Below, in pieces: positions 15,678 through 44,753 of a DNA stretch of 64,000 nt (position 1 is the first letter of the stretch; each line of letters opens with the position of its first letter). The stretch comes from a virus. The translations under genes and the position numbers were made by a program. The stretch spans positions 1-64,000 of the IMG/VR virus record IMGVR_UViG_3300036832_001118; one strand, 5' to 3'. A model generated the notes under the pieces. It was not told where the DNA came from. It did not search any database and saw nothing but the letters and a program-made list of their open reading frames with translations.

Positions 15678-16535
15678 ATGACGACTGTACTCCAGACTAC
15701 CTACCGGCCGCAGATCGCGCCCTTTCTGTTGGGCCTGATCATCGACGAGAACGACGCGGAAACCATCACCAAGGTTTGCAACACGGCGGCGGGCATTCCT
15801 TTCGGCGTCGCCGTCAGCCAGGATACCGTCGACAAGAACTGCATCCTTGGCGGGTCGAAGTTCATCGGCCTGACCCAGCGCGATAAGGCGCTGGCGCTGG
15901 CAGCGGTCGATCCACTCGCGGCCATCGACACGCCCAACCCGCTCGATGCCTACGGTCAGTGGACCAACGTGTCGATCATCACGCGCGGCCGCATTGCCGT
16001 GCGCGCGGGCGCCAACGTGGCGGCGTGGGACCCGTTGTTCTACGACCTCACCACGGGGCTGCTTACGAACTTGGTCACGGGCGCTGCGGCGTCGGGCTCG
16101 ATCACGTTCTCCAGCCAGCCGCTTGATGGCCAGACGGTGACCATCCAGGGCACTGCGGTCACGTTCAAGGCGAGTGGTGCCACCGGCCTCCAGGTCAATA
16201 TCGGTCCGACCTTGGGCGACACGCTCGTTGCGCTCGCGGCGTTCCTGAACGGGTCGGCCGACGCTAACCTCGTGTTGATGAAGTATGCGGCCGATCCTCC
16301 GTCGCCGGGCGGCTCAGGACAGGGCAGTGGTGCCAACAGGTTACTGGTTGGCGTCAAAGCCGTGGGCGTGGCCGGCAATGCCTACACGCTTGCCACCAAC
16401 GTGCCGGGGGCAACTGTGTCAGGCGCCACCCTCTCGGGGGGCACAGCAGCGGCCACCGCCATCCCTAGCGGCCGTTGGTACACCAGCGCGCTCGCTGGCC
16501 AACTCGCCGTCGCTTCGCTCGGCATCCAGTACTGA
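15678..16535 (+). CDS. Capsid cement/decoration protein with an inserted beta domain
   Basis: IPFGVAV, VSIITRGRIAV, C-terminal RWYTSA.AGQLA; lies between the protease and the capsid gene. Confidence 0.75.
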   Translation: MTTVLQTTYRPQIAPFLLGLIIDENDAETITKVCNTAAGIPFGVAVSQDTVDKNCILGGSKFIGLTQRDKALALAAVDPLAAIDTPNPLDAYGQWTNVSIITRGRIAVRAGANVAAWDPLFYDLTTGLLTNLVTGAAASGSITFSSQPLDGQTVTIQGTAVTFKASGATGLQVNIGPTLGDTLVALAAFLNGSADANLVLMKYAADPPSPGGSGQGSGANRLLVGVKAVGVAGNAYTLATNVPGATVSGATLSGGTAAATAIPSGRWYTSALAGQLAVASLGIQY

Positions 16536-30907: not shown

Positions 30908-32803
30908 ATGTCTCAGCCCTATTTCGGCCTACAGTTTATCCAACTCGACGACCAGCCGATTCCGGTGCTGGGTGCCAATATGGATGTGATTGGAATTATT
31001 GGACCGTGCAGCACGGCCGATAATACCGTGTTTCCCCTCAACACCCCCGTCCTCGTCTACTCGAACGATACCGATACCCTACAATCGCTTGGGAGTGACG
31101 GATACATCCAAGATGCCATCAACGGCATCAATGCGCAGTTGGCTGACTTCCAGGTCGCGGCGCAACTCGTGATCGTCGTCACGCCGTATGGAACGGCCGC
31201 GGACCTCAACATCAAGACGCAGCAGACGATTGCCAACATCATGGGCAACAGCGTCATGCGCACTGGTGTGTGGGCATTCACTAACGCGGCCAATATGCTG
31301 TACTGCACGCCGCGCCTGATCATCGCCCCCGGCTATACTGGTCAGATGGCCAACAGTTTGAACACGCTGTTCGTCAACACGGTTGGTATCGGCTACGTCC
31401 CCTATGGGACCTATCAGATCCAGTTCGCGCCGGGTGTGGGCGAACTCAATGGAGCGACGTTGGTTCTTCCCACCGCGCATGCGGTGGCGGAGGCGGATGG
31501 CTCGATCCATGAGCAGGATATCTTCATTGATAGCTGGGGGGCCTGGTTCACATCGGCGCCGACCGCAACCATTGTGACGCCCGACGGGCCGCCGGTCGTG
31601 GCGCAGCGTGCTTCGGGCAGCATGATCTTCAATCAGAACCCCGGCATCGGTTCGACCATCACGCTCGGCGGAACGACCGTGACGTTTGTCTCCGGCACGC
31701 CGACCGGCAATCAGGTGCAGATCGGCGCCAACCTGTCGATCACGCTGAACAATTTGCTGACGATGCTCAACGCCAGCGCCGACACCAACATCAGGATCTG
31801 TCAGCCGTATACGCTGAGCACCAACCAGCTGTTGTTCATCGCGACTGCCGCGGGGGCAGCCGGCAACGGCTTCACGCTTTCCGGGACGGTCACTGGGCTC
31901 TCGATCTCTGGGCCACACCTGACGGGCGGTCAAGATGCAATGGCCTCGGTCCGGTGCACGATGACGGCGACGGTCGCGCTCGGTGCCAACCCGGTCTGCG
32001 CAGCGCTCGGCGGCGGCGTGCTCGATAATCTGATCGGGCAAGCGATTGTTGAGAGTGCCGGCACCTCGCAAATCCAGGACGAGAACTGGCGCACCACGAT
32101 GAACAATCAAAGGGTCATTGCGGTCAGCGGTGGGGTGAAGATCCAGGATCCCGTGTCAGGCAACATCATCGTGGTGCCGCGAGCTGGTCGTGAGGCTGGC
32201 CTTGCTGTGGCACGTGACTTTGCCACCGGCGCGCCGTTCCACTCCTGGGCCAACCAGCCCATCCAGGGCATCGTCGGGCCCGCCCGCACGGTCGAGTTCT
32301 CACTGACTGATCCGGCCTGTGAGGGGCAGCAACTGCTTGCCGCCAATATCGGCATCATCGCCCGCGGTTTGATTGGTGTGGAAACGGCGGTCAGTTCCGG
32401 CGGGTTCATCTCGATCACGTTGGACAACACAGGGGATGATCCTCTGTGGCAAATGATTAACGTAAAACGCGGCAGAGACTTCATTCACCTCAGTCTCATG
32501 CCAGTGTTGCGGACCTACCTCGGGCGCTCCAATATTGATCGGCAGACGGTAACTAATGTTATCACCACGATCAATGACTTCCTGTTCACCCTGAAGGCGC
32601 GCCAGCAAATCATCGACGGCAAGGCGTCATTCAACGGCAGCTTCAACACCGCAGGCGAAATCCGGCTCGGTCACCTGACCGTTGGGTTCTCCGCCGAAGA
32701 AGCGCCGGTGCTCAAACTGATCACGACCATGTCGTCTCGGTACAAACCTGCGATAGATCAAATGGTCGCACAGCTAGAGCAACAGCTAAATATCTCGGCC
32801 TAA
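30908..32803 (+). CDS. Contractile tail sheath protein (P2 FI-like) with an inserted domain
   Basis: VIGIIG...AD..FPLNTPVL, PRLIIAPG, PFHSWANQ...GI.G..R, INV.R..D, G.L.V....E...L. Confidence 0.9.
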   Translation: MSQPYFGLQFIQLDDQPIPVLGANMDVIGIIGPCSTADNTVFPLNTPVLVYSNDTDTLQSLGSDGYIQDAINGINAQLADFQVAAQLVIVVTPYGTAADLNIKTQQTIANIMGNSVMRTGVWAFTNAANMLYCTPRLIIAPGYTGQMANSLNTLFVNTVGIGYVPYGTYQIQFAPGVGELNGATLVLPTAHAVAEADGSIHEQDIFIDSWGAWFTSAPTATIVTPDGPPVVAQRASGSMIFNQNPGIGSTITLGGTTVTFVSGTPTGNQVQIGANLSITLNNLLTMLNASADTNIRICQPYTLSTNQLLFIATAAGAAGNGFTLSGTVTGLSISGPHLTGGQDAMASVRCTMTATVALGANPVCAALGGGVLDNLIGQAIVESAGTSQIQDENWRTTMNNQRVIAVSGGVKIQDPVSGNIIVVPRAGREAGLAVARDFATGAPFHSWANQPIQGIVGPARTVEFSLTDPACEGQQLLAANIGIIARGLIGVETAVSSGGFISITLDNTGDDPLWQMINVKRGRDFIHLSLMPVLRTYLGRSNIDRQTVTNVITTINDFLFTLKARQQIIDGKASFNGSFNTAGEIRLGHLTVGFSAEEAPVLKLITTMSSRYKPAIDQMVAQLEQQLNISA

Positions 32804-32892: not shown

Positions 32893-33402
32893 GTGAGCCA
32901 TATCATAGGCTTAATAGGAGAGCGCTTCGGGCGTCTATTGGTCATTGCCAGGGGCCCAAGCACTAAAGTTAACGGTTTTGCTTGTTGGGCTTGTCAGTGC
33001 GATTGCGGCAAGGTCACGGTCGTTAGCGGCATTAACCTACGGAATGGTCAGACCCGCTCCTGTGGATGTCTTAGGAAAGAAATGCTTGACGCCGGATTAC
33101 ATGTCACTCACGGGAATCGTCGCGGCCGTAAATCAACGCCAGAATATCAAACTTGGCTTGAGATGATGCGCCGTTGTTACAATCCGAACTTCATTGGTTT
33201 CAAAGATTACGGGGGTCGAGGTATTCGAGTTTGCAGAAAGTGGCGCCGGTCATTTGAGGCGTTTCTTGCTGATGTAGATAGGCGCCCGTCGCCTGAATAC
33301 TCGATAGATCGTATCAACAACAACGGAAATTACGAGCCCGGCAACGTGCGTTGGGCTACGCGTAAAGAACAAGCAAACAATAGACGACCGCGGACAAAGT
33401 AA
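32893..33402 (+). CDS. HNH-type homing endonuclease with an N-terminal CxCDCG domain
   Basis: GERFGRL.V, W.C.CDCG, SCGC, YGGRGI.VC..W, SIDRINNNGNYEPGNVRWAT; lower GC; inserted between sheath and tube. Confidence 0.9.
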   Translation: MSHIIGLIGERFGRLLVIARGPSTKVNGFACWACQCDCGKVTVVSGINLRNGQTRSCGCLRKEMLDAGLHVTHGNRRGRKSTPEYQTWLEMMRRCYNPNFIGFKDYGGRGIRVCRKWRRSFEAFLADVDRRPSPEYSIDRINNNGNYEPGNVRWATRKEQANNRRPRTK

Positions 33403-33528: not shown

Positions 33529-34119
33529 ATGGCTAACCCAGTTTGGACTTTGGAAGATGCGAACATGTTCTGCGGTGTCGGTCCCACCGACAACACGGCC
33601 AGCAACCATCTGGTGCTGACCGAAGTAAAGCTCCCTGGCCTCGACATGCAGTACGTCGACCATCGCGCTGGTGGCGCGCCGATTGCGATCGAAGTCAGCA
33701 CAGTGATCGCCCGGCTTGAGTGCACGTTCGTCTGCGTCGGGCTGCAGGATCAGATCATCAAGCTGATAGGCAGTTGGAACAACACCATGAACTGGTTCTG
33801 GATCTATGGTGTGATCCGCGACCAAGGTAATGGCACGGCAGCTCAGGCGGCCGCGGCGATCAAAGGTCAGCTTGGCCGTGCCGATCCGCAGAACTATCGA
33901 CGTGGCGATCTAATGCACACGAACTACGCCATTCGCGGCATTACGCACTACGAATTCAACATCGCGGGCGCGAATGTGGTGCTCTGGGATTATATGTCCA
34001 ACACCAGGATCATTGGCGACGTCGATCAGAACCGGGTCATCAATACCTTCCTCAACACCGCGGCAGTGACAGCGGCCCCGGCGATCTCGACCGTGTTCCC
34101 ATTCCAGCCGGGTGAATAA
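33529..34119 (+). CDS. Major tail tube protein (P2 FII-like)
   Basis: E.KLP.L....HRAGG, I.G.LG..DP..Y.RG, HYE, D...N..I.GD. Confidence 0.88.
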   Translation: MANPVWTLEDANMFCGVGPTDNTASNHLVLTEVKLPGLDMQYVDHRAGGAPIAIEVSTVIARLECTFVCVGLQDQIIKLIGSWNNTMNWFWIYGVIRDQGNGTAAQAAAAIKGQLGRADPQNYRRGDLMHTNYAIRGITHYEFNIAGANVVLWDYMSNTRIIGDVDQNRVINTFLNTAAVTAAPAISTVFPFQPGE

Positions 34120-34653
34120 ATGAAAGCGTGGGCTATGCGCAACGACGGCACGTTCGTCGTTGAACTCTACACGCCGCTCAAGCATCAAAATCGGGAGATC
34201 GAATACATCGTCATTCAAGCTCCGCGCTACGAGCATTCCATCCGTTGGAACCGCGGTGAGATCCCATCAGGCTTTGCCCTGTTGGCGGAACTCACCAACT
34301 TGCCAGAGCGATTGCTGCGTCAGGTGACCAATCCAGATATCGACCGCATCACCTTTGCGCTGTTCGCGCAGGCGAAGTTCGCGCAGACGGACGTGTTTGA
34401 GGGCAAGATCCCGCTCGCCACGCCGGATGAGCAGCTACCCGAAGACATGGAAACGCCAATAGTCGATCAGGTTGATCCGCGCTTCCCGCACGTTGAAGGA
34501 CCGATCAAACGCTTCCCAGCCCCGCCGGTCACACAAGTTCCCGGCGCGGCGCCACAACCCGGAGCAGCACCTGCGTCGCCAGCACCCGCAGCGCCAGCAG
34601 AGAATTTCGATCTTGGCTTTAGCGGGCCAGAAGCGATGAAGGCGGTTAGCTAA
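34120..34653 (+). CDS. Tail assembly chaperone
   Basis: VEL.TPL....I.YI, LLAELT.LP......PD..R; lies between the tube and tape measure genes. Confidence 0.75.
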   Translation: MKAWAMRNDGTFVVELYTPLKHQNREIEYIVIQAPRYEHSIRWNRGEIPSGFALLAELTNLPERLLRQVTNPDIDRITFALFAQAKFAQTDVFEGKIPLATPDEQLPEDMETPIVDQVDPRFPHVEGPIKRFPAPPVTQVPGAAPQPGAAPASPAPAAPAENFDLGFSGPEAMKAVS

Positions 34654-37600
34654 ATGGACGACATCCTCGCCAGCGCTCAAGTTGTTTTGGAAGGCGTTGA
34701 CAAAGTCAGTCCTGCTGCGACCTCGAGTATAGACGCGCTCAAACGGCTCGCCGCGACTGGCGCTGATGTACAACGGCAGCTGATCAATGCCGCACAGAAC
34801 CATCAGCAAACGCTGCAAGTCCTTAATAAAATTTATGCGCAGAACCAGCAGGCGGCACAAGCCGCGGGTACGGGAGCGACCCAAGCCGCCAATGCAGCAT
34901 CTCAGGCGGTTCAGAAGCATACGCAAACGGTCCAACAAGTACCTCCCGCACTTAATGCGGCGGGACGTGCCGCCAATCAGCTGCAGAAACAACTGACGGA
35001 TGCGTTCTCGGTCTATGCGATTGAGGAGTTCATTCGCAAGTCTTACATGGCTTTCACCAGCCAAGAATTGGCGATGCGTAGAGTTCAACTCGCCGCTGGC
35101 GGCACGACAGAGGAGATCAACAAGGTACACCGGGGACTGCACGATATAGCCACCGAAACTAACCAAGCGACCGAGAATATGGCCAAGGCGTTTCGCGACT
35201 TTCAGGCCCGATCCGGGCTGGGCTATGGTGAGGCAGTAAAGGCGTTTAGGGCCGTGGCTGATGCCGCTGATTTGGCTGGCGTCCACGTTGACGCGATGTC
35301 GCGCGTTGCCACGGCGGCGATGGCGCAGTTGAACATCAACGACAAGGAATTGTCGCAGCTCATGGGAGCTTTTGGCAAAGCCTTCGCCGGAATGGGCAGT
35401 GAAGCTTTGCATGTCATGCCGAATATCATTGCCTTGATGCAGCGGCTTCATATCACCGGAAAGGATGCGCTTGAAGGAGTTGCTGCTGCTATCCAGGCTA
35501 CAGGCAAGCTACAGGGCTCAGCTGAGGGGGCCGCGCGCGGGTATCAGGCCATCGTCGACCTGGCGTCTCGTCCAGATACTAGGCTGGGTTATGTACTTCA
35601 AGACAAAGTTCAAGCCGTTGCGGATCATATTGGCGACACTACCGATTTATACGCGGCTGCCCTTGAGAAGATGCGAGAGGAATGGAAGAAGACTGGCGGC
35701 AATTTTCGCAGCGAGATGATGCAATTGAATTTAATGTTTGAGGGCAACCAAGACGCAATACAAACGGCCCGAGCTGCCATGAAGTTATCCGATGAGGAAT
35801 TTAAAAAATACATTCAAGACTTGAAGGAAAAAATGGCGACAGAAAAAGAAGCCGCAAAGCTACATGAAGAGACCATGAGAGGAGCAATCGACGGAACGCG
35901 TAAGCTCATTGGCGCCTGGAATGATTTGGAACTTTCGATCGGCGGGCTCCTGGATAAGCTGGGCGCAACCGACAGTCTGAATAGTACCGTCACTGATTTG
36001 AAGAAGCTCACGGAATTGCTTGAGTGGCTAGATAAGTTCATGAAAGAGCATATGAGTATGGGAGGGCTCGGCGGTGTAACAAGTGGATTTGGTCTCGGGA
36101 CGCGGTTTCGCGAGCATATTTTAAGTCTTCCTCCCGCCTTCAGCATGGGCACCCCGGCGCCGCCGAGAATGCAATCTGGCGGCGTTGTCACTGAACCAAC
36201 CGTCGCAATGATCGGCGAGGCTGGGCCCGAAGCGGTCGTGCCGCTCGGCGGTGGTGGCGCTGATATGCGTGGCGCTGACGGCGGCACTCAAGCCGAGCGT
36301 GAGGCGGCCGAGATGTGGGGACGTCTGCATGGTCTGGCCGGAGCGCGCCACAAGCACGTCGATCTGAAGGGCCAACTCAGCCAAGAGGAATTGGACAAGA
36401 TCCTGCAAGCTGAGGGAGGTGGCGGCCCTGGTGGTGGCGGCCGTGACACCGGGTGGGGACCGGGGAGTGGACGCGGGGGAACCAGAGGGGACGGCACCTC
36501 TCGTGGTGACGGCAGAACTGACGACAATAGAACTTCCGATGTGAAGCCGCCTCCAGCGGCAGCGCCACTGCCAACGCAAGGCGCGGCTGGCATCCCTGGG
36601 TTACCCGGCAGCCCATCCGGTCCAGCGCTGACGCCTGAAGAGCGCAAAGCGGCGGGGGCGCCGAGCGGTGGAACAGGAGGAGAATTTCAAGCCGGTGGAA
36701 AGTACTCAAAATCACAGCAGGCGGCCATCAATGCCGTTGTAAATGAATGGCGCAAGGCTGGAATGTCTGATGTTGGCATTGCAGGTGTTCTTGCCAACAT
36801 TCGTGAGGAATCTACATTTGATCCAACTTTGCGACATCCCGATCAGCCAAAATACGGCGGTGAAGCGCATTTTGCGCATGGCTTGTATCAGGAAGGCGGC
36901 GCTGAATGGAATAACTACGTAAGTTGGATGCAGCGGAATTATCCAAAAGGCGATTGGCGTGATCCGAAATTGCAAAGTGAATTTGCTGCTAAGAATTTGC
37001 GCGAAGGGATAGGCGACGCGCGTTATAAGGCAGTTTGGGAAAGGATGAAAAATGCCAAGACGCCAGCGGAAGCAGCAGCGGCTTATGTTGAAGGTTATTT
37101 GAAACCTGCCGCAAAATATCGAGAAAAACGCGTTCGTGAGTTCAGGGCCGGTGGCGCTCCCGGTTTAGAGACATATGGAACCGGAACTGGTGGCCCCGCT
37201 GAGATAGCGCGACCCGACTTGCCGCCGATAGGTCAGGTCGCCGGGCTGCCGGGTGGGCCGTCTGGTCCGAGCCTGACGCCGGAACAAAGGAAAGCGGCTG
37301 CGACTGGTGGCGGTGGGGGCGGCGGCGAGGGTGGTGGCAGTGTGATCTCTCCATTCCCAGGCGCTCATGGGTTTGGAATCGGGTCTAGCAATGTTTATGG
37401 AGCAGGCAGAAGCGGAGGGCGCCGAGCGCATTCAGGTAATGATCTTCATGCCGGTGATAGTCCGGGGTCGACTCCGAATGGCACGCCTGTAGTGTCAATG
37501 ACTGGTGGTACGGTTCTCTACAACGGCAGGAATTCGGGATATGGAGCAAATATTGTCATCAGGGGCGATGACGGCATTATTCGTAGATACGCAGTTCATG

Positions 37601-38733
37601 GAAGTACTGCGGATCTAAAGCCGGGAGCGCATGTTGATCAGGGGCAGTTCATTGGTCGCATTGGGGAGAACCATCTCCATTACGAGGAAATTCCGCCTAC
37701 CAGAAATGGTAGGGACAATCCAGTCTATCATGAATTTGAGAGAAATGCGAGGACCAATACATTTACCAACACAGCAAACCAAAGAGGAACCGTTGATCCT
37801 TCTGGCCCCCACGGATCATTGCAGAACATAGGCAAGAAAAAAGAGCAGGTCGACCAAGCAACCGGCCCGACGAAGCCTGGCGGCAAGGGCACCAAGCTCT
37901 TCATTCATGGAATGAATTATGAGCGCTTTGGTGACGCCAGCAAGATACAAGATGAGATCGAAGCGGATGTGCGGCGTCAAGCAGCGGCCGAGGGTTACGA
38001 CAACGTAGAGTTTGTTCGCGGCAGCAATAACCAGCAAAAAATTGCTGAGGCCGATGCGCGTCTGAAGAAAGGGGGTATCACGAAGGTTGATGGCTTCTCG
38101 CAGGGTGGCTACATTATCAATAATCACCTGCGAAAGAGATATCCAAAAATTGCTATGACGGATTATGGTGCCACAAAAAGTGGCGCTGATCCTAATTTCC
38201 CTGGCGTCAAACATATGCAGTTGCCGAAGGCGGCGGCTGATAGAGCTGTCGAAGAGCGTAAGGCGCGCGAGGCCAAGGCGGCACCAGCGCCTGCTGTCCG
38301 CAGCGCTGAAGTTGAGCGCGGTGAGGCAGCTGGCCTACAGGCGCGCCTCGCCCAGGCTGACAAGGAAGCGGCGGCAGCTAAGCCCAAGAAGGAAGCGGCA
38401 GGACCGCCGCTAGCATTGAAGACGGCTAAGGCGATGGCCGAGGGCGGCATCGTCACGCGACCGACCGATGCGCTCGTTGGCGAGGCGGGTCCCGAGGCGA
38501 TCATTCCGCTGGACGGTGGCGGCTCAAGTAGTTTGGACATTGACAGTTTGCTCCGGCAACACGCCGAGTTGCAGGCACATATGAACCAAAATCCGATCGA
38601 GGTGCCGATGGCTGAGCCGCATCGCATGGGGGGCGGTCGCCAACCGTTCGGTCGCATGATTGAGATGTCGCGACGTAAGACCGAAGCGCGCCGCACGGCA
38701 CATGAAGTGCCGCTCGATACAGGGCCGATGTAA
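34654..38733 (+). CDS. Tape measure protein 1 with phage-tail lysozyme, M23 peptidase and putative alpha/beta-hydrolase domains
   Basis: Helical Ala/Gln-rich N-terminal ~470 aa; GGVV..PT..IGEAGPEAVVPL x2; AGVLANI.EES.FDP..GLYQ; H.G.DL..GYG..H..HLHYE; GFSQGG. Confidence 0.85.
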   Translation: MDDILASAQVVLEGVDKVSPAATSSIDALKRLAATGADVQRQLINAAQNHQQTLQVLNKIYAQNQQAAQAAGTGATQAANAASQAVQKHTQTVQQVPPALNAAGRAANQLQKQLTDAFSVYAIEEFIRKSYMAFTSQELAMRRVQLAAGGTTEEINKVHRGLHDIATETNQATENMAKAFRDFQARSGLGYGEAVKAFRAVADAADLAGVHVDAMSRVATAAMAQLNINDKELSQLMGAFGKAFAGMGSEALHVMPNIIALMQRLHITGKDALEGVAAAIQATGKLQGSAEGAARGYQAIVDLASRPDTRLGYVLQDKVQAVADHIGDTTDLYAAALEKMREEWKKTGGNFRSEMMQLNLMFEGNQDAIQTARAAMKLSDEEFKKYIQDLKEKMATEKEAAKLHEETMRGAIDGTRKLIGAWNDLELSIGGLLDKLGATDSLNSTVTDLKKLTELLEWLDKFMKEHMSMGGLGGVTSGFGLGTRFREHILSLPPAFSMGTPAPPRMQSGGVVTEPTVAMIGEAGPEAVVPLGGGGADMRGADGGTQAEREAAEMWGRLHGLAGARHKHVDLKGQLSQEELDKILQAEGGGGPGGGGRDTGWGPGSGRGGTRGDGTSRGDGRTDDNRTSDVKPPPAAAPLPTQGAAGIPGLPGSPSGPALTPEERKAAGAPSGGTGGEFQAGGKYSKSQQAAINAVVNEWRKAGMSDVGIAGVLANIREESTFDPTLRHPDQPKYGGEAHFAHGLYQEGGAEWNNYVSWMQRNYPKGDWRDPKLQSEFAAKNLREGIGDARYKAVWERMKNAKTPAEAAAAYVEGYLKPAAKYREKRVREFRAGGAPGLETYGTGTGGPAEIARPDLPPIGQVAGLPGGPSGPSLTPEQRKAAATGGGGGGGEGGGSVISPFPGAHGFGIGSSNVYGAGRSGGRRAHSGNDLHAGDSPGSTPNGTPVVSMTGGTVLYNGRNSGYGANIVIRGDDGIIRRYAVHGSTADLKPGAHVDQGQFIGRIGENHLHYEEIPPTRNGRDNPVYHEFERNARTNTFTNTANQRGTVDPSGPHGSLQNIGKKKEQVDQATGPTKPGGKGTKLFIHGMNYERFGDASKIQDEIEADVRRQAAAEGYDNVEFVRGSNNQQKIAEADARLKKGGITKVDGFSQGGYIINNHLRKRYPKIAMTDYGATKSGADPNFPGVKHMQLPKAAADRAVEERKAREAKAAPAPAVRSAEVERGEAAGLQARLAQADKEAAAAKPKKEAAGPPLALKTAKAMAEGGIVTRPTDALVGEAGPEAIIPLDGGGSSSLDIDSLLRQHAELQAHMNQNPIEVPMAEPHRMGGGRQPFGRMIEMSRRKTEARRTAHEVPLDTGPM

Positions 38734-41700
38734 TGGATGAAGTTGTCGGCAGCGCCAAGGTTGTTCTGGAGGGTATCGATAAGATTAGCCCTGCCGTAAC
38801 AACCAGTATCGATACACTTAAAAAGTGGGCGGCAAGTGGCGCCGATGTGCAACGGCAGTTGATCCAGGCTGCGCAGAAGCATCAACAAACACTGCAAGTG
38901 CTTAACCAGATCTACGCACAGAACCAACAAGCCGCACAAGCTGCAGGCGGCGCAACGACACAAGCGTTCAATGCAGGAACGCAGGCGGCTCAGCAATTAA
39001 CGCAGGCGGTTCAGAAAGTGCCGCCCTCACTTATTAATATCGGACAGGCCGGCGCCGTCTTACAAAAACAAGTCGCCGGCTATTTCTCGATCTACGCGAT
39101 TGAGGAGTTCATTCGCAAGTCTTACATGGCTTTCACCAGTCATGAAGAACATATGCGGCGAATTCAACTCGCCTTTGGCGGTACCACAGAGGAGATCAAA
39201 AAACTACATGGTGAACTGAGTAGCCTGGCGGCAGCGGTCGGGTCAACAACAGAGAAGATGACTGACGACCTCCGTGCGTTTATGGCCGGTTCAGGACTTG
39301 GACGCGGCGAGGCACTGGAGGCGTTCAAGGGTATTGCCATGGCGGCCGACGAGGCCGGCATTCACGTGCAGGATATGTCACGCATTGCCACAATGGCAAT
39401 GGCACAGCTGCAAATTAGCACGCGAGAGATGCCCCAGTTAATGGGGTCAATGGGTAAGGCTTTCGCTGAAATGGGCGCTGCGGCCGCGCGCGTCCTGCCG
39501 AATATCATCACTTTGATGCAGCAGATCGGCCTTACAGGCAAAGCCAATCTGCAAGCCGCCTTGGCCATCGCCGAGGTCAGCACAAAAGCTACCGGCGACG
39601 CAGAGATTTCTTGGCGTAATCTGCAGACCATATTGCAGCAAATGGGCGATCCCGAAAGCAAATTGAATCGTCAGGCGGCGGATAGGTTCGACGCTTTCAA
39701 ACAGAATATTGGCGATACCATCGATGCATACATGATTGCCGTTGATTGGACGCGGGATGTTATGAAGCGGCATCCCGACATCCGCAGCGTAAACGCTGAA
39801 ATGGATTGGATGTTTGGCCATAATGTGCAGCTGCAGGAACAGTTAAAACACGATGCGGCAGTCGAGCGGGATGAGTTATATAAAACATTACGGGCCCAGA
39901 AGGATGCGCTCGGTAATGTCAAGGAGATCGATGAGGCGCATCAAAAGTTTGTAAAGGGCTCAATAGATGGAACGCGTCGGCTCTCGCAAGCTTTGATCGA
40001 CGTGGCAGTATCGGCCGGTGGATTTCTTGATTCGATTGGCATGACTGATACTTTGCATAGCACTGTTACCGACCTGCAACATCTCAAAGAACTCATTGAA
40101 TGGTTTCAAGGGAAGAGTAAGGAGGGCGAAGACAAGGGCGGCGTTCCGAACGATGCTTCAGAGTACAGGGACATGCTGCGCCGCCGAATACACCCACCGG
40201 CTAAGCCAGAAATCAAGCCACATCAATCTGGTGGCGTTGTTAGTGAGCCGACCTTGGCAATGATCGGTGAGGCTGGGCCGGAAGCCGTGGTCCCGCTGAC
40301 ACGCGGCTTTGATATGCGCGGCGCCTCGGGCGGTACGCAGGCCGAGCGGGACGCCGGGACAATGTGGGCTCGCTTGCATGGTCTGGCACTAACGCGGACC
40401 AAGCATATCGATCTGCACGGGAAGCTGACGCAGGAAACCATCGACAAGCTGATGGGTGGCGGGGGCAGCTCTGGCGGAGGTGGCGCCAGCGGGGATTCCA
40501 GCGGGGCGAGCGGGACACCGACGGGGACAAGCAGCACGACGGGTGACAGCAAATCAACTGGCGATAGCAAGGCTGATACAGGCGGTACGCAACCGGCCCC
40601 GCCTGGGGCAGAGGGAACATTCCGACCTGTTTATAAACTAGGGGGTGCTGATCTCAGCGACGCCGTCGTCAATACGATTGCCGGCGAAGCTTACACCAAC
40701 AATCAAGAGAGCGTCGATGCTGTCATCAATAATATGCTGAATCGCGTCGGATCGAAAGGCTGGGGGCCATCCGGCGACATGCAACAGGTAGCACGCGCGC
40801 GCGGTCAATATGCTGGCTATCGTAAGGCCAATGCTAAAGAAGCTGAATTTATTCGTAACAGAATCAAAGCCATCGCGTCCGGTGGGGTTAAAGACAACAC
40901 TGGTGGATCAAACGAATATCGAGCAGGTTCCTACCGCGGGCCTTGGTATCAACATCATCGCGACGCACCAGTAGTTGGTGGCAATCGATTTGGCTTTAAT
41001 CCAAAAGTTTCAAATGGACCTTACGCTCCTTATCCAACCAAGATGATGGCCAAGGGCGGAATTGTTACGAAGCCTACGCTGGCGACGATCGGCGAGAATG
41101 GGCCAGAGGCCGTGGTGCCGCTCCAGGAGGTGGGTACAAAGGGGCAACAACAGCAGTTTTGGGGAATGCCGAGTGAGGGTGGAAAGGAGGGAGAAGCGGA
41201 TTTAGATCCAGTACGTGCATTAGCGTTCGAGAATGAAAAAATTTTAGGACAGCCTGGGCGTCATCGTGCTTCGCAGTGGCACGAGTGGTTGAAGCAAAAT
41301 CCCTATGGCCGTGGGGTAAGTGAGGGAGAAGCTATAGGTACCAATCCATTTGGGGTTCGACAAAAGGAGTATTTGAAACAGCTAGAACGTACAATGGAGG
41401 TACAGGGAGATAACCCTGATCTCGATAAGAGAGTCTTGGAAGATTTAGGCCCTCGTCCATCGCAAGCCAGCCTCACTGGTGGCGGCGGCTCTAGTGGTGG
41501 TGCCGGTGCCAGCATGAACTTCGGTGGTGGCTTTGGCGGCGGCGAAACATCTGCACCGGAAGGCTACACGCCGAGCGTGGCCAACATACATCCAAACGCT
41601 CATGGATTTCTTAACGCGATTGCTAGCACAGAGACAGACTTCAGCGAAAGAGAGGCTTACTCCGACGCGACTAACGTCAAGAGCTACGGCGGCAACACGT

Positions 41701-42233
41701 CGATGTACGATTACGGCTACTATCAGATGGCTCAGCGTGACATCGACTATGCTGTCAAAACTCTGCACATGTCTCCGGAGATAGCTCAGCATTTGACTGG
41801 TGGGCCTGATCATAAGAGTACGCTCGATCAGCAGACTGCTTCCGTTAATGAATATTTGCAGCGGCGTTATCCAGACGCTTATAGAAATCTAGTGGAGCGC
41901 GGTGACTATGAAGGCATGCGCCAGGCCACGAGGCATGGCAAAAGCTGGGTTTGGTTTGGCCTGAAAGACAAACCCAAGCAAGCTTTGACTGAGTACAACA
42001 AGGTCGCGCAGCCGCAGACCACGGCAGTGACGCCGCTGCCCAAGTCGCGACCGGCATCGGCGCAGGCAAGCGCACAGACCCACTTCAACAACAACCCGAT
42101 TCAGGTGCCGGTCGCCCCGGCCAAGCTTGGGGCACACCGCCAATCGTTTGCGCGCAGCGCTGGTTGGGCGCAGCGCAAGGCGCATGCCCGCAGCGCTCGA
42201 CAGGAAGCCACGGTTCATACCGGGGAGATGTAA
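38733..42233 (+). CDS. Tape measure protein 2 (paralogue) with SleB-like cell-wall hydrolase and lambda-R-like lysozyme domains
   Basis: N-terminus collinear with TMP1; TIAGEA..AV...MLNR..GQY..D.TGG; FLNAIA.TE..YGYYQ..W.GL. Confidence 0.85.
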   Translation: MDEVVGSAKVVLEGIDKISPAVTTSIDTLKKWAASGADVQRQLIQAAQKHQQTLQVLNQIYAQNQQAAQAAGGATTQAFNAGTQAAQQLTQAVQKVPPSLINIGQAGAVLQKQVAGYFSIYAIEEFIRKSYMAFTSHEEHMRRIQLAFGGTTEEIKKLHGELSSLAAAVGSTTEKMTDDLRAFMAGSGLGRGEALEAFKGIAMAADEAGIHVQDMSRIATMAMAQLQISTREMPQLMGSMGKAFAEMGAAAARVLPNIITLMQQIGLTGKANLQAALAIAEVSTKATGDAEISWRNLQTILQQMGDPESKLNRQAADRFDAFKQNIGDTIDAYMIAVDWTRDVMKRHPDIRSVNAEMDWMFGHNVQLQEQLKHDAAVERDELYKTLRAQKDALGNVKEIDEAHQKFVKGSIDGTRRLSQALIDVAVSAGGFLDSIGMTDTLHSTVTDLQHLKELIEWFQGKSKEGEDKGGVPNDASEYRDMLRRRIHPPAKPEIKPHQSGGVVSEPTLAMIGEAGPEAVVPLTRGFDMRGASGGTQAERDAGTMWARLHGLALTRTKHIDLHGKLTQETIDKLMGGGGSSGGGGASGDSSGASGTPTGTSSTTGDSKSTGDSKADTGGTQPAPPGAEGTFRPVYKLGGADLSDAVVNTIAGEAYTNNQESVDAVINNMLNRVGSKGWGPSGDMQQVARARGQYAGYRKANAKEAEFIRNRIKAIASGGVKDNTGGSNEYRAGSYRGPWYQHHRDAPVVGGNRFGFNPKVSNGPYAPYPTKMMAKGGIVTKPTLATIGENGPEAVVPLQEVGTKGQQQQFWGMPSEGGKEGEADLDPVRALAFENEKILGQPGRHRASQWHEWLKQNPYGRGVSEGEAIGTNPFGVRQKEYLKQLERTMEVQGDNPDLDKRVLEDLGPRPSQASLTGGGGSSGGAGASMNFGGGFGGGETSAPEGYTPSVANIHPNAHGFLNAIASTETDFSEREAYSDATNVKSYGGNTSMYDYGYYQMAQRDIDYAVKTLHMSPEIAQHLTGGPDHKSTLDQQTASVNEYLQRRYPDAYRNLVERGDYEGMRQATRHGKSWVWFGLKDKPKQALTEYNKVAQPQTTAVTPLPKSRPASAQASAQTHFNNNPIQVPVAPAKLGAHRQSFARSAGWAQRKAHARSARQEATVHTGEM

Positions 42234-42881
42234 ATGGCCGTTCCACCCTTCACCGTCCCTCTTCCGAACGTCATCGGTGTCAAGAACCCGCCGGTTACCC
42301 CGCCCGTAGAGAACACTTTCAAAATCCGGCCTTATTACGAGGCTTATGCTAGCGGTCAAACGAGCAAGTATCCCTATGCGAGCTGGCTGCAGAACGGAGC
42401 CAGCCTGTATGCGCCGACGACAGATAGCGGCATCAACAATGTTCTATACGCGTGGGGGCCGATCCAATTTATTGTTGTTGGATTGAACACGCATGAGCTG
42501 GACCACGATACGGAAACGGATTGGGCGCAGAAGGAAATTGTAAACGCGGCGATCTACAGGGAGTGGGTAGGAGAAAACGATGAGCAACTCTACGTGCGCG
42601 GGCGCATATTCCCTTATCGTATCCAGGGCATGACACAGCTCGAAGCATTCGAGTTGCAACGGCGCGGCGGCATTGTCAACCAACTCATCCGCGGTGATGG
42701 CTTGATCATGGGCTGGTTTGCCTGTCAGAAACTCGTGCGCGGTCATACGTTCCTGTCTGCGGAAGGCGTCGGCCAGCAGATCGCTTTCGAGACCGTGCTG
42801 GTGCGTTGTCCTGTGCCCGCTGCTGACAATCGCTATTCCAGTCTTTGGGGCACCATGATCAATCCGCAGGGACTAGGCTGA
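42234..42881 (+). CDS. Tail protein U (P2 gpU-like)
   Basis: WG.IQF, WA.KE......EW.GE.D, G..FP, LIRGDG..MGWF, G.GQ.I.FE. Confidence 0.85.
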   Translation: MAVPPFTVPLPNVIGVKNPPVTPPVENTFKIRPYYEAYASGQTSKYPYASWLQNGASLYAPTTDSGINNVLYAWGPIQFIVVGLNTHELDHDTETDWAQKEIVNAAIYREWVGENDEQLYVRGRIFPYRIQGMTQLEAFELQRRGGIVNQLIRGDGLIMGWFACQKLVRGHTFLSAEGVGQQIAFETVLVRCPVPAADNRYSSLWGTMINPQGLG

Positions 42882-42903: not shown

Positions 42904-43173
42904 ATGGTGACCGGTTTCGAATTAGTCCAGGTGACGACAGACTACGTCACCGCAGATCTGATTATTTGGAAGCGCTATAAGCGCAAAGCGCCGGGTATGG
43001 TCGAGCTGATGCTGGACGCCAATCCGCAGTTGGCCTTCGTGCACCGGACCACGCCGTTCATTCCGCCGGGCACTTATCTGCGTGTGCCGATCGATCCTGG
43101 AATGATCCTTGGGCGTATCGCGCCGCTGCCCACGGATTCCTTGTGGACTGACAGGGCGGGTAGTACGCTGTGA
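42904..43173 (+). CDS. Tail protein X (LysM-like)
   Basis: DLIIW.RY....G.VE..LDANP.LA......P.GT..P. Confidence 0.9.
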   Translation: MVTGFELVQVTTDYVTADLIIWKRYKRKAPGMVELMLDANPQLAFVHRTTPFIPPGTYLRVPIDPGMILGRIAPLPTDSLWTDRAGSTL

Positions 43174-44753
43174 GCAACGGCGGCATCCCGCTGCCATCGT
43201 TGCCGCCTGATCCGATCCTTGTTGGACAGCCCTTCCCGCTGCAAGGCTTGCCGCAAGCGCCGTTCGGTTCGCCAATTCTTGATACGCGACCGGGACCGCC
43301 GCAACTGCTCAACAGTGCCAGCGGCGGCGTAAACACCAGGTACACCACGGACATTTTTTCCGGGACGGACAACAATGGCAATCCGCTTCCACCGCCGCCG
43401 AACCCGTTTATCGGCTCGCCAATTCAAACTAATCGGCTGCAGGCTTTCTGCACGGTGATAGTCGCCGGAGTCGATATCACGGATAAGCTCAATCCCTATC
43501 TCATCTCGCTGCGGATAGTAGATGCCAAGGTTCCAACCGCAGAAATCGAAATCGATGACCGTGACGCACGGCTGCCGATCCCGCCATATAACGCGGATGT
43601 CAGCATCTACATTGGCTGGGTGGCTGAGGCTACCTACGTGAATTTCAAAGGTGTGATTGTGGACCTCGAATACAGCGACGCGCGCCAGGGCGGCCGACAC
43701 ATGACGGTGCACTGCCGGGCTGACAGCCTGAATACCAAGATGAAGGAACCAGGTTCCGATAATGTAGGCGATGGCCCCCCACCGGGCGAGAACGTCGGCA
43801 AGACAATTCCTGTCAACGAATGGCTACAGTCCGCGGCGAAGGCGGCCGGGACGATAGTGAGTTTTGCACCCGATGCGCTGGCGAAGGCGCAGAAACTTTT
43901 GAAGGATCATCATGACCGCAACAATGAAAGCATGCAGCAATTGGTGGAGCGTGAGGCCAAGGCGGCGGGCCTCACCACGCAATATTTTCGTGGTGGGGTC
44001 AAACTCTTCGGGATCAACGACGCGCAGGGAAGTGTCATCGCCCAGGTCGGTTACAATCTGATCAGTCTACGCGTGCGACCCTACTCGGCCCGTGGCAGCT
44101 GGAGCGACAGCAGACAACACTGGTTCGATACCAAGCTGGGCCAGTGGAAGCGAATGAAGATCCCCATCAGCACCGGCAGCGCGCAATTCGACAGTGCGAT
44201 TGGTGCGGTTGCAGGCTTCCTGTTGCCGAAACCGGCGCCAGACGAGGCGTCAGCGCAAGCCGATCGCGACGGGGGATCTAATCAGGTTGGCTTCGGTTAT
44301 GGGCACGGTCGTATCTGTATCAATGGTGAGCCATCGGCACAATTCTTGTGTGCGGTAACGGTGATCGGAGTACGCTCCGGTGTGGATGGCCGTTACAAGG
44401 CTTGGGACGCGGTCGAGCATATCTATTCCCGTCAAGGCTACGTCACTTGGCTCGATGTTATTACGGATGCGGACGGCAGCCCCGGCAGCAACGTGCTGGA
44501 AGGTCACATCGCGGCGGCTGAGTTGGGTGCGAAGTTGGCGCTAGCCTACGCAAAACAGGGCGTTAGCGCTATCGTGCCGCTTCCCAGCCCAACGCAGCTA
44601 AACCAACAAGTTCCCGCAGGAGAGCCGATCGATTCGGGTACCGCGTCGTCTCTCTTGCCAAACCTCTCACCCCCTCCGCCTGTGCCGAATGCGCCGATCC
44701 CACTTGATCCATTGGGGTCATTGGGGAGTCAACCCTTGGGAGGGTCTTTGTGA
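43170..44753 (+). CDS. Baseplate hub / late control D protein with Pro-rich terminal extensions
   Basis: G.DIT..L.PYLISL.I.D, I.IDDRD..L.IP, NES, I.GEP......V..GVR.GVDG.Y....H.YSR.G.VT. Confidence 0.85.
   Translation: MSNGGIPLPSLPPDPILVGQPFPLQGLPQAPFGSPILDTRPGPPQLLNSASGGVNTRYTTDIFSGTDNNGNPLPPPPNPFIGSPIQTNRLQAFCTVIVAGVDITDKLNPYLISLRIVDAKVPTAEIEIDDRDARLPIPPYNADVSIYIGWVAEATYVNFKGVIVDLEYSDARQGGRHMTVHCRADSLNTKMKEPGSDNVGDGPPPGENVGKTIPVNEWLQSAAKAAGTIVSFAPDALAKAQKLLKDHHDRNNESMQQLVEREAKAAGLTTQYFRGGVKLFGINDAQGSVIAQVGYNLISLRVRPYSARGSWSDSRQHWFDTKLGQWKRMKIPISTGSAQFDSAIGAVAGFLLPKPAPDEASAQADRDGGSNQVGFGYGHGRICINGEPSAQFLCAVTVIGVRSGVDGRYKAWDAVEHIYSRQGYVTWLDVITDADGSPGSNVLEGHIAAAELGAKLALAYAKQGVSAIVPLPSPTQLNQQVPAGEPIDSGTASSLLPNLSPPPPVPNAPIPLDPLGSLGSQPLGGSL

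Follow-up and report, generated by a model that had tools for sequence, protein, structure and literature searches.

Two tape-measure genes in one slot of a contractile-tail operon

The virus record IMGVR_UViG_3300036832_001118 of IMG/VR is 87,760 nt long and estimated to be 94% complete; we analyzed its first 64 kb (64,000 nt, hereafter the window), and the public sequencing runs that contain this stretch are soil metagenomes. At positions 34,654 to 42,233 of the window lie two adjacent large genes, each predicted to encode a tape-measure protein (TMP): TMP1 (34654..38733, 1359 aa) and TMP2 (38733..42233, 1166 aa), both intact open reading frames (ORFs) on the plus strand, as are the other tail-module features described below. 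At their junction, which reads ...CCG ATG TAATG GAT..., the stop codon of TMP1 shares one base with the start codon of TMP2. Together the two genes fill exactly the slot held by gene T in phage P2, within a P2-like contractile-tail module that runs in the order sheath, HNH, tube, 177-aa ORF, TMP1, TMP2, gpU, gpX. An earlier reading of this sequence, made without database searches (the original prediction), had described two intact, TAATG-coupled TMP paralogues of a contractile-tailed phage, collinear in build and bearing different envelope-degrading cargo. The open frames and the junction sequence confirm the coupled pair, and the P2-like module, with its sheath, FII-type tube, gpU-like and gpX-like genes, confirms the contractile tail.

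The two proteins resemble each other in segments that follow the same order along both chains. Their N-terminal domains (N-domains; TMP1 aa 1-584, 34654..36405, a PhageMin_Tail-type tape-measure core by BLASTP and hhalign; TMP2 aa 1-574, 38733..40454, assigned by BLASTP, tree and hhalign) align with 52% identity (BLASTP, E 3e-161), carry the YAIEEFIRKSYMAFTS block at the same offset (119-136) and contain the STVTDL...EW stretch, in keeping with the collinearity that had been proposed. The shared GEAGPEAVVPL motif is also present, as two copies per protein of a ~24-residue element, GGxVTxPTxAxIGEAGPEAVVPL, which at the DNA level forms a four-copy repeat (family D1). The TMP1 copies are at 36172..36245 (GGVVTEPTVAMIGEAGPEAVVPL) and at 38437..38510, the latter also falling in BLASTP segments; those of TMP2 are at 40224..40297, with DNA 84% identical to TMP1 copy 1, and at 41049..41122. 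Because PHROG tape-measure profiles align to the GEAGPEAVVPL-type motif close to the profiles' own C-terminal ends, we regard it as a common C-proximal tape-measure element. Both proteins end in a conserved tail of ~55 residues (NPIEVP...TGPM in TMP1, 38566..38730; NPIQVP...TGEM in TMP2, 42066..42230) that is 32–43% identical between them, and BLASTP recovered both this NPI.VP...TG.M similarity and the GGTQAER...MW.RLHGLA segment listed with it in the original prediction. The paralogues are most alike toward their ends: identity drops to 17–33% in the central N-domain and stands at 52–80% in the candidate interface segments.

Both proteins match PHROG tape-measure profiles, which for TMP2 include phrog_794 over aa 9-314 (E 2.6e-7). 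The Pfam family TMP_3 (PF20155) scores below its cutoff of 41 bits in each (21.8 bits for TMP1 and 16.6 for TMP2), and PF10145 (PhageMin_Tail) has no direct match in TMP1 or TMP2. The TMP of L010, a syntenic relative in IMG/VR, does exceed the PF10145 cutoff (34.7 versus 33.2 bits), and a profile built from six N-domains aligns with it over 430 columns at an hhalign probability of 100% (E 1.7e-42). Because of their position and this transitive homology through L010, we take both N-domains to be tape-measure cores. Taken together, the sequence comparisons support the view that TMP1 and TMP2 are genuine tape-measure paralogues, collinear in build and unlike in cargo.

Integrity, age and relatives of the pair

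Among the ways in which the original prediction could have failed was a chimeric assembly of two strains, and we found no chimera. A Logan contig of 4,095 nt, independently built from the probable source run, spans 35031-39125 with 0 differences and so bridges the junction; depth is 14–16x throughout both genes; and a second soil sample, from another study, contains near-identical fragments (0–1 difference) of both. In the source run, alternative short contigs (depth 4.4 and 8.3, 9–12 differences) cover 34401-34869, at the boundary between the 177-aa ORF and TMP1, which indicates strain microdiversity at the 5′ end of TMP1. The same run also holds two sub-threshold joints, one from 36289 to 39303 (with 24 foreign letters) and one from 41544 to 40458.

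Relaxed selection on one copy had also been named as a sign of failure, and neither copy shows it. Between TMP1 and TMP2 the proportion of synonymous differences (pS) is 0.72, which is saturated, and that of nonsynonymous differences (pN) is 0.32, giving a nonsynonymous-to-synonymous rate ratio (dN/dS) of at most about 0.17, and the tip branches of the two copies are similar in the tree described below. With synonymous sites saturated and pN at 0.32, the copies are old and under purifying selection. The only exact word of at least 15 nt shared between the genes is a 44-bp block encoding AIEEFIRKSYMAFTS, at 35017..35060 (+) and identically at 39096..39139 (+); its synonymous sites differ among the relatives L005-L012, and the block probably arose by gene conversion over a short tract, between copies in the same genome.

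When 1.8 billion representative proteins were searched with the TMP1 N-domain, very few close relatives emerged. The orthologues of the two genes, P0003 (59–61% identical to TMP1) and P0014 (64% identical to TMP2), are each encoded on an ENA contig 30,446 nt long. A maximum-likelihood tree joins TMP1 with P0003 and TMP2 with P0014 in sister clades with 99–100% support and similar tip lengths, and P0015 and P0004 branch outside both, where single-gene lineages lie. Because the tree pairs TMP1 with P0003 and TMP2 with P0014, the duplication appears to predate the split of two phages, both of which kept the two copies. In P0015, P0017 and P0004 (on ENA contigs of 85–96 kb and 11 kb) the C-terminal parts resemble a frameshifted version of the motif region, and the ENA assemblies of these related phages probably contain indel errors.

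In IMG/VR, syntenic relatives at a greater distance fill the slot with one TMP-sized gene, which encodes 1204 aa in L006, 1144 aa with Amidase_2 cargo in L010 and L011, 739 aa in L015 and L016, and 1173 aa in L017. L012 has a 1094-aa gene directly before gpU with just 220 nt of sequence upstream of it, and may have a second copy. A single TMP in relatives, together with relaxed selection on one copy, had been named as evidence against the original prediction; the single TMP holds for the distant relatives, but apparently not for the second phage, which has orthologues of both copies with similar branch lengths. The pair is thus conserved in apparently one relative and, by these comparisons, is an old, lineage-specific tandem duplication. 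No match came from megablast or tblastn searches of a phage collection, from scanning IMG/VR with a single protein, or from profile scans of JGI metagenome contigs and GTDB genomes.

Each copy carries its own string of cargo domains

TMP1 had been credited with a tail lysozyme, an M23 peptidase and a GxSxG hydrolase, of which the first two are now well supported. Its first cargo domain is a Phage_lysozyme2 domain (aa 693-828, 36730..37137; PF18013, E 8e-18, 65–71 bits, above cutoff) that resembles the lysozyme domain of phi29 gp13 (PDB 3csr). The second is a Peptidase_M23 domain (aa 940-1011, 37471..37686; PF01551, E 5e-13, 49.5 bits, above cutoff) with PDB matches to LytM, DipM and lysostaphin, and with the motifs HxxxD (HSGND) and HxH (HLH) in its translation. 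Catalytic motifs are retained in both of these domains, as they are in the Hydrolase_2-like domain of TMP2.

The third cargo segment of TMP1 (aa 1079-1190, 37888..38223) has the motif HG...GFSxGGY...D...H, and its HG, GFSxGGY, D and H elements are invariant, in the order canonical for serine hydrolases of the alpha/beta-hydrolase type, across four homologues (TMP1, P0007, P0009 and P0156). An AlphaFold2 (AF2) model from a shallow alignment shows a beta-alpha-beta sandwich in which the serine (Ser1149) sits where a strand turns into a helix; the predicted local distance difference test score (pLDDT) is 80–94 in the core, and the last ~80 residues are poor. Pfam has no match for this segment, the best fold matches of the model are generic flavodoxin-like or binding-protein lobes (Z ≤ 8.9; Foldseek and VIA-align), and esterases are only among the weak Foldseek rows. 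The GxSxG motif of the original prediction is therefore conserved, its identity as a hydrolase is unproven, and we call the segment a candidate serine hydrolase and nothing more. A linker, GxPGxPSGPxLTPE(E/Q)RKA, stands before cargo domains twice in TMP1 (aa 649-666, 36598-36651; aa 864-881, 37243-37296). The linker also stands before cargo domains in P0003 and, twice, in the distant P0007, and not in TMP2; it may mark a cassette boundary or a processing site.

The cargo of TMP2 is different, and here the original prediction of a SleB-like hydrolase and a lambda-R-like lysozyme fared less well. The first cargo domain (aa 618-767, 40584..41033) is Hydrolase_2 (SleB/CwlJ)-like, with a PF07486 score below the cutoff (E 0.0015, 19.6 bits versus 27). 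A domain found in tape-measure proteins of ~620 aa from Methylobacterium, Salinarimonas, Rhodoblastus and Pseudolabrys matches it at 58–74% identity, and some of these alphaproteobacterial homologues carry PF07486 (P0170 and P0171) or PF10145; an Atlas lead agrees with the Hydrolase_2-like assignment. 'SleB-like' is thus a reasonable description despite the sub-cutoff profile score. Because this cassette resembles domains in tape-measure proteins of Hyphomicrobiales, it hints at an alphaproteobacterial host.

The claim of a lambda-R-like lysozyme is not supported. PF00959, PF01464 and PF18013 have no match in TMP2 at E ≤ 10, and the remaining region (aa ~800-1100, 41130..42032) gave no Pfam match, no PDB sequence match and no homologue; a single-sequence AF2 model of it failed to give a fold (pLDDT 37), the poor model being mostly helical. 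An E-T...GYYQM pattern seen by eye in this region is reminiscent of lysozymes, and weak lysozyme-like Atlas leads (below 0.9) point the same way, which makes this a lead only. The GH24 (PF00959) and SLT (PF01464) profiles have zero matches at E ≤ 10 in the whole 87.8-kb record, and PF18013 matches TMP1 only. Judging from these profiles, an endolysin of this phage, if there is one, would be of another type or would belong to the enzyme families found in the tape measures.

Comparison with the orthologues suggests how such cargo changes. The alignment of TMP1 with P0003 extends beyond the N-domain to aa ~880, through the first cargo domain; the last visible domain of P0003, which is truncated, differs from that of TMP1 by eye. 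TMP2 and P0014 have no similarity beyond residue 574. Conversely, the block of TMP1 comprising the M23 domain, the serine-hydrolase candidate and the motif is 33% identical to P0007, with N-domains only 24% identical. As judged from these alignments, cargo is turning over faster than the frame. Single-TMP relatives carry other cargo, such as Amidase_2 in L010, which shows that cassettes turn over on a constant frame.

Sheath, tube and chaperone-like genes occur once in the surrounding tail module

The genes on either side of the pair are those of a single tail. The sheath gene (30908..32803; phrog_23, E 5e-34, with a weak Phage_sheath_1 match) is the only copy in the 87.8-kb record, which holds no second sheath gene, and the P2 FII-type tube gene (33529..34119; Pfam Phage_tube, E 4.7e-16, above cutoff) is likewise the only one. 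Directly upstream of TMP1, the 177-aa ORF (34120..34653) occupies the position of a tail-assembly chaperone. It is the only such ORF in the record; the assignment is by position, with no family match in profile searches, and L006 and L010 have syntenic ORFs (175 and 163 aa, respectively) ahead of their single TMP. Downstream follow a P2 gpU-like gene (42234..42881; PF06995, E 4e-18), whose product is 79% identical to that of the gene after the single TMP of L006, a P2 gpX-like gene (42904..43173; PF05489, E 2e-6, above cutoff) and a gene for a 527-aa tail protein (43170..44753; phrog_52, E 6e-10), a hub candidate that is assigned to gpD by position only and shares 48% identity with the product of the syntenic L006 gene.

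Between the sheath and tube genes lies an HNH endonuclease ORF (32893..33402; phrog_374, E 2e-63), which has the appearance of a mobile homing endonuclease inserted into the tail operon (compare bioRxiv 10.1101/2023.03.23.533998). Sheath and tube genes adjoin in L010, and other small ORFs stand in this gap in L005 and L006. The sheath protein itself has an insert (aa 230-368, 31595-32011) that shares 40% identity with a stretch of an ORF in the head-gene region (16074-16523).

Relation to known tape measures and effector systems

It is established that virion-associated lysins can be domains of tape-measure proteins (PMC6116005), and the tape measure of phiCbK, gp95, has a CHAP domain (PMC3556154). 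As in the pair described here, T5 pb2, the TMP of mycobacteriophage TM4, that of phiIPLA35 and phiCbK gp95 consist of a core followed by wall-degrading domains, and their enzymes are ejected from the tail and open the murein locally (PMC6116005; PMC3556154). Those phages have one TMP gene each, usually with one or two enzyme motifs, whereas here, in a P2-like myophage, the gene is duplicated and the two copies bear different strings of several enzymes. Closer to hand, the TMPs of L006, L010/L011 and L012 lie in the same slot between a chaperone-like ORF and gpU and have homologous N-domains (29–34% identity); those of L005 and L006 have the GEAGPEAVVPL-type motif, and the C-terminal tail is common to the L006 TMP and this pair (44% identity between the tails of TMP1 and L006). 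The TMPs of L006, L010/L011 and L012 differ in being encoded by one gene each, of 1094–1204 aa, and in carrying other cargo, which in L006 is a probable CHAP-like Cys...His stretch identified by eye only.

Individual cassettes have parallels elsewhere. The arrangement of a lysozyme-like domain followed by M23/LytM is that of phi29 gp13 (tail morphogenesis protein 1; PDB 3csq/3csr), and TMP1 aa ~683-1020 matches both halves; gp13, however, is a free-standing tail-knob protein of a podovirus, outside any tape measure. The ~620-aa tape-measure proteins of Hyphomicrobiales have the same Hydrolase_2-like cassette as TMP2 but are much shorter and have unrelated or distant N-domains. Because the cassette is all that they and TMP2 have in common, the match suggests cassette exchange.

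Two broader classes of system invite comparison. The polyvalent proteins of phages and conjugative elements (Iyer et al., 2017; PMC5512222) also place many enzymatic domains on one polypeptide that enters the host together with the DNA; their domains act mostly against host defence and on nucleic acids rather than on the cell wall, and that account does not speak of tape measures. Type VI secretion systems and extracellular contractile injection systems load separate cargo onto a constant machine by means of a dedicated signal or adaptor. The resemblance to such loading that the original prediction drew is an analogy: the pair has its cargo covalently within full-length TMP paralogues, and we saw no adaptor genes between 34120 and 43173.

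The literature that we searched offered no precedent for two, second, duplicated or heterotrimeric tape measures, and the motif strings of the pair were absent from it too. To call the pair an undescribed system, as the original prediction did, is nevertheless an overstatement: tape measures with cargo are of a known kind, and the pair is a duplication of one.

How two tape measures might serve one phage

The original prediction offered two readings: a hetero-oligomeric ruler with five enzymes split over two chains, or two virion types with different payloads. We lean toward an explanation in which a cargo-bearing TMP gene was duplicated in tandem and both copies are co-loaded into one kind of tail. 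Each copy keeps the parts required for assembly: an N-domain that matches the other's in length, the GEAGPEAVVPL-type motif and a short C-terminal tail, which single-TMP relatives have as well. Between these constant anchors sit differing strings of cell-wall-hydrolase cassettes that would be exchangeable. Translational coupling would cause TMP1 and TMP2 to be made together, and their conserved ends would let them engage a common chaperone, tube and hub. From a single pool both proteins would enter the lumen of one kind of tail and be expelled when the sheath contracts. TMP1 could then open the peptidoglycan locally with its lysozyme-like glycosidase, M23 endopeptidase and candidate serine hydrolase, and TMP2 with its SleB/CwlJ-like hydrolase and the domain without a family match, so that the duplication would be a means of carrying more enzyme types than a single chain holds. 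We propose shared production, a shared pool and a shared tail because the genes are coupled and because sheath, tube and chaperone-like genes are each present once. Both enzyme sets are probably delivered by tails, and co-delivery would extend the established role of lysin-bearing tape measures (PMC6116005; PMC3556154).

Several points weigh against this explanation. Most relatives have one TMP. The adjacency of P0003 and P0014 is deduced from the equal size of their ENA contigs, on which both ORFs are truncated. TMP1 and TMP2 differ in length by 193 residues; if the whole chain acts as the ruler, each would dictate a tail length of its own, a difficulty for a mixed trimer. Of the five cargo domains, two lack a secure family assignment, and co-expression, incorporation into virions, mixed trimers and enzyme activity are all inferred. 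On the question of length, the equal N-domains (~575–585 aa) would fit a shared ruler.

A stricter form of co-loading would have an obligate mixed trimer of tape measures in every tail, the duplication being an escape from the limit that one chain and a narrow lumen place on cargo. We entertain this only tentatively, and think it rather less than probable.

Alternatively, there could be two kinds of virion, each with a tail built on a homotrimer of one paralogue, differing in payload and perhaps in tail length, as a form of bet-hedging across hosts or wall states. The two proteins differ in total length (1359 versus 1166 aa), the central N-domain at 17–33% identity could favour self-association, and the two cargo sets do not overlap. 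We nonetheless judge this unlikely: both copies are translationally coupled in one operon, which has a single chaperone-like gene, tube gene and hub region, the most conserved segments (N-terminal, motif and C-terminal) are common to both, and we see no sequence feature that would enforce sorting.

Extracellular contractile injection systems use cargo that bears N-terminal packing signals, and a division of labour between the paralogues can be likened to these: one copy would be the length ruler and channel former, and the other a passenger in the lumen, with the TMP ends serving as its loading signal. The concentration of conservation at the ends of the paralogues fits this idea, as does the length of TMP2, which at 1166 aa is within the range of the single TMPs of relatives (1094–1204 aa in L006, L010 and L012), TMP1 being longer. 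A copy that was only a passenger should have shed much of the ruler, however, and both proteins retain an entire N-domain (~575 aa, equal in length), two motif copies and the tail, and have evolved at similar rates in the two orthologue pairs, all of which makes the division of labour improbable in our view. That the pair is an artefact or in decay, either a chimera of two strains or a functional gene beside a non-functional remnant, is very improbable indeed: the record is a metagenome assembly from a run with microdiversity at 34401-34869 and a sub-threshold joint from 36289 to 39303, but the junction is bridged without a difference and at even depth, both genes recur in a second study, orthologues of both copies are found on an ENA contig of 30,446 nt, the frames stay open over 3.5–4.1 kb under constraint (dN/dS at most about 0.17), and the TAATG overlap is exact.

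Implications

The TMP is treated as a single-copy gene whose product, a homotrimer, sets the length of the tail and leads the entry of DNA. A conserved pair of paralogues that share their assembly ends and differ in their enzyme strings raises the questions of whether one tail can hold a mixed tape measure, how length would be measured with chains that differ by 193 residues, and how far the enzyme payload of a tail can diversify. Because these are uncultured soil phages, the immediate impact will be limited until a virion is examined. The layout of a constant frame with exchangeable cassettes, marked by a repeated motif and a linker, could help in designing tails or tailocins that bear wall enzymes of choice. 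If the mixed trimer should prove to be both true and general, heteromeric tape measures would represent a recurrent tail architecture of phages that has gone unrecognised.

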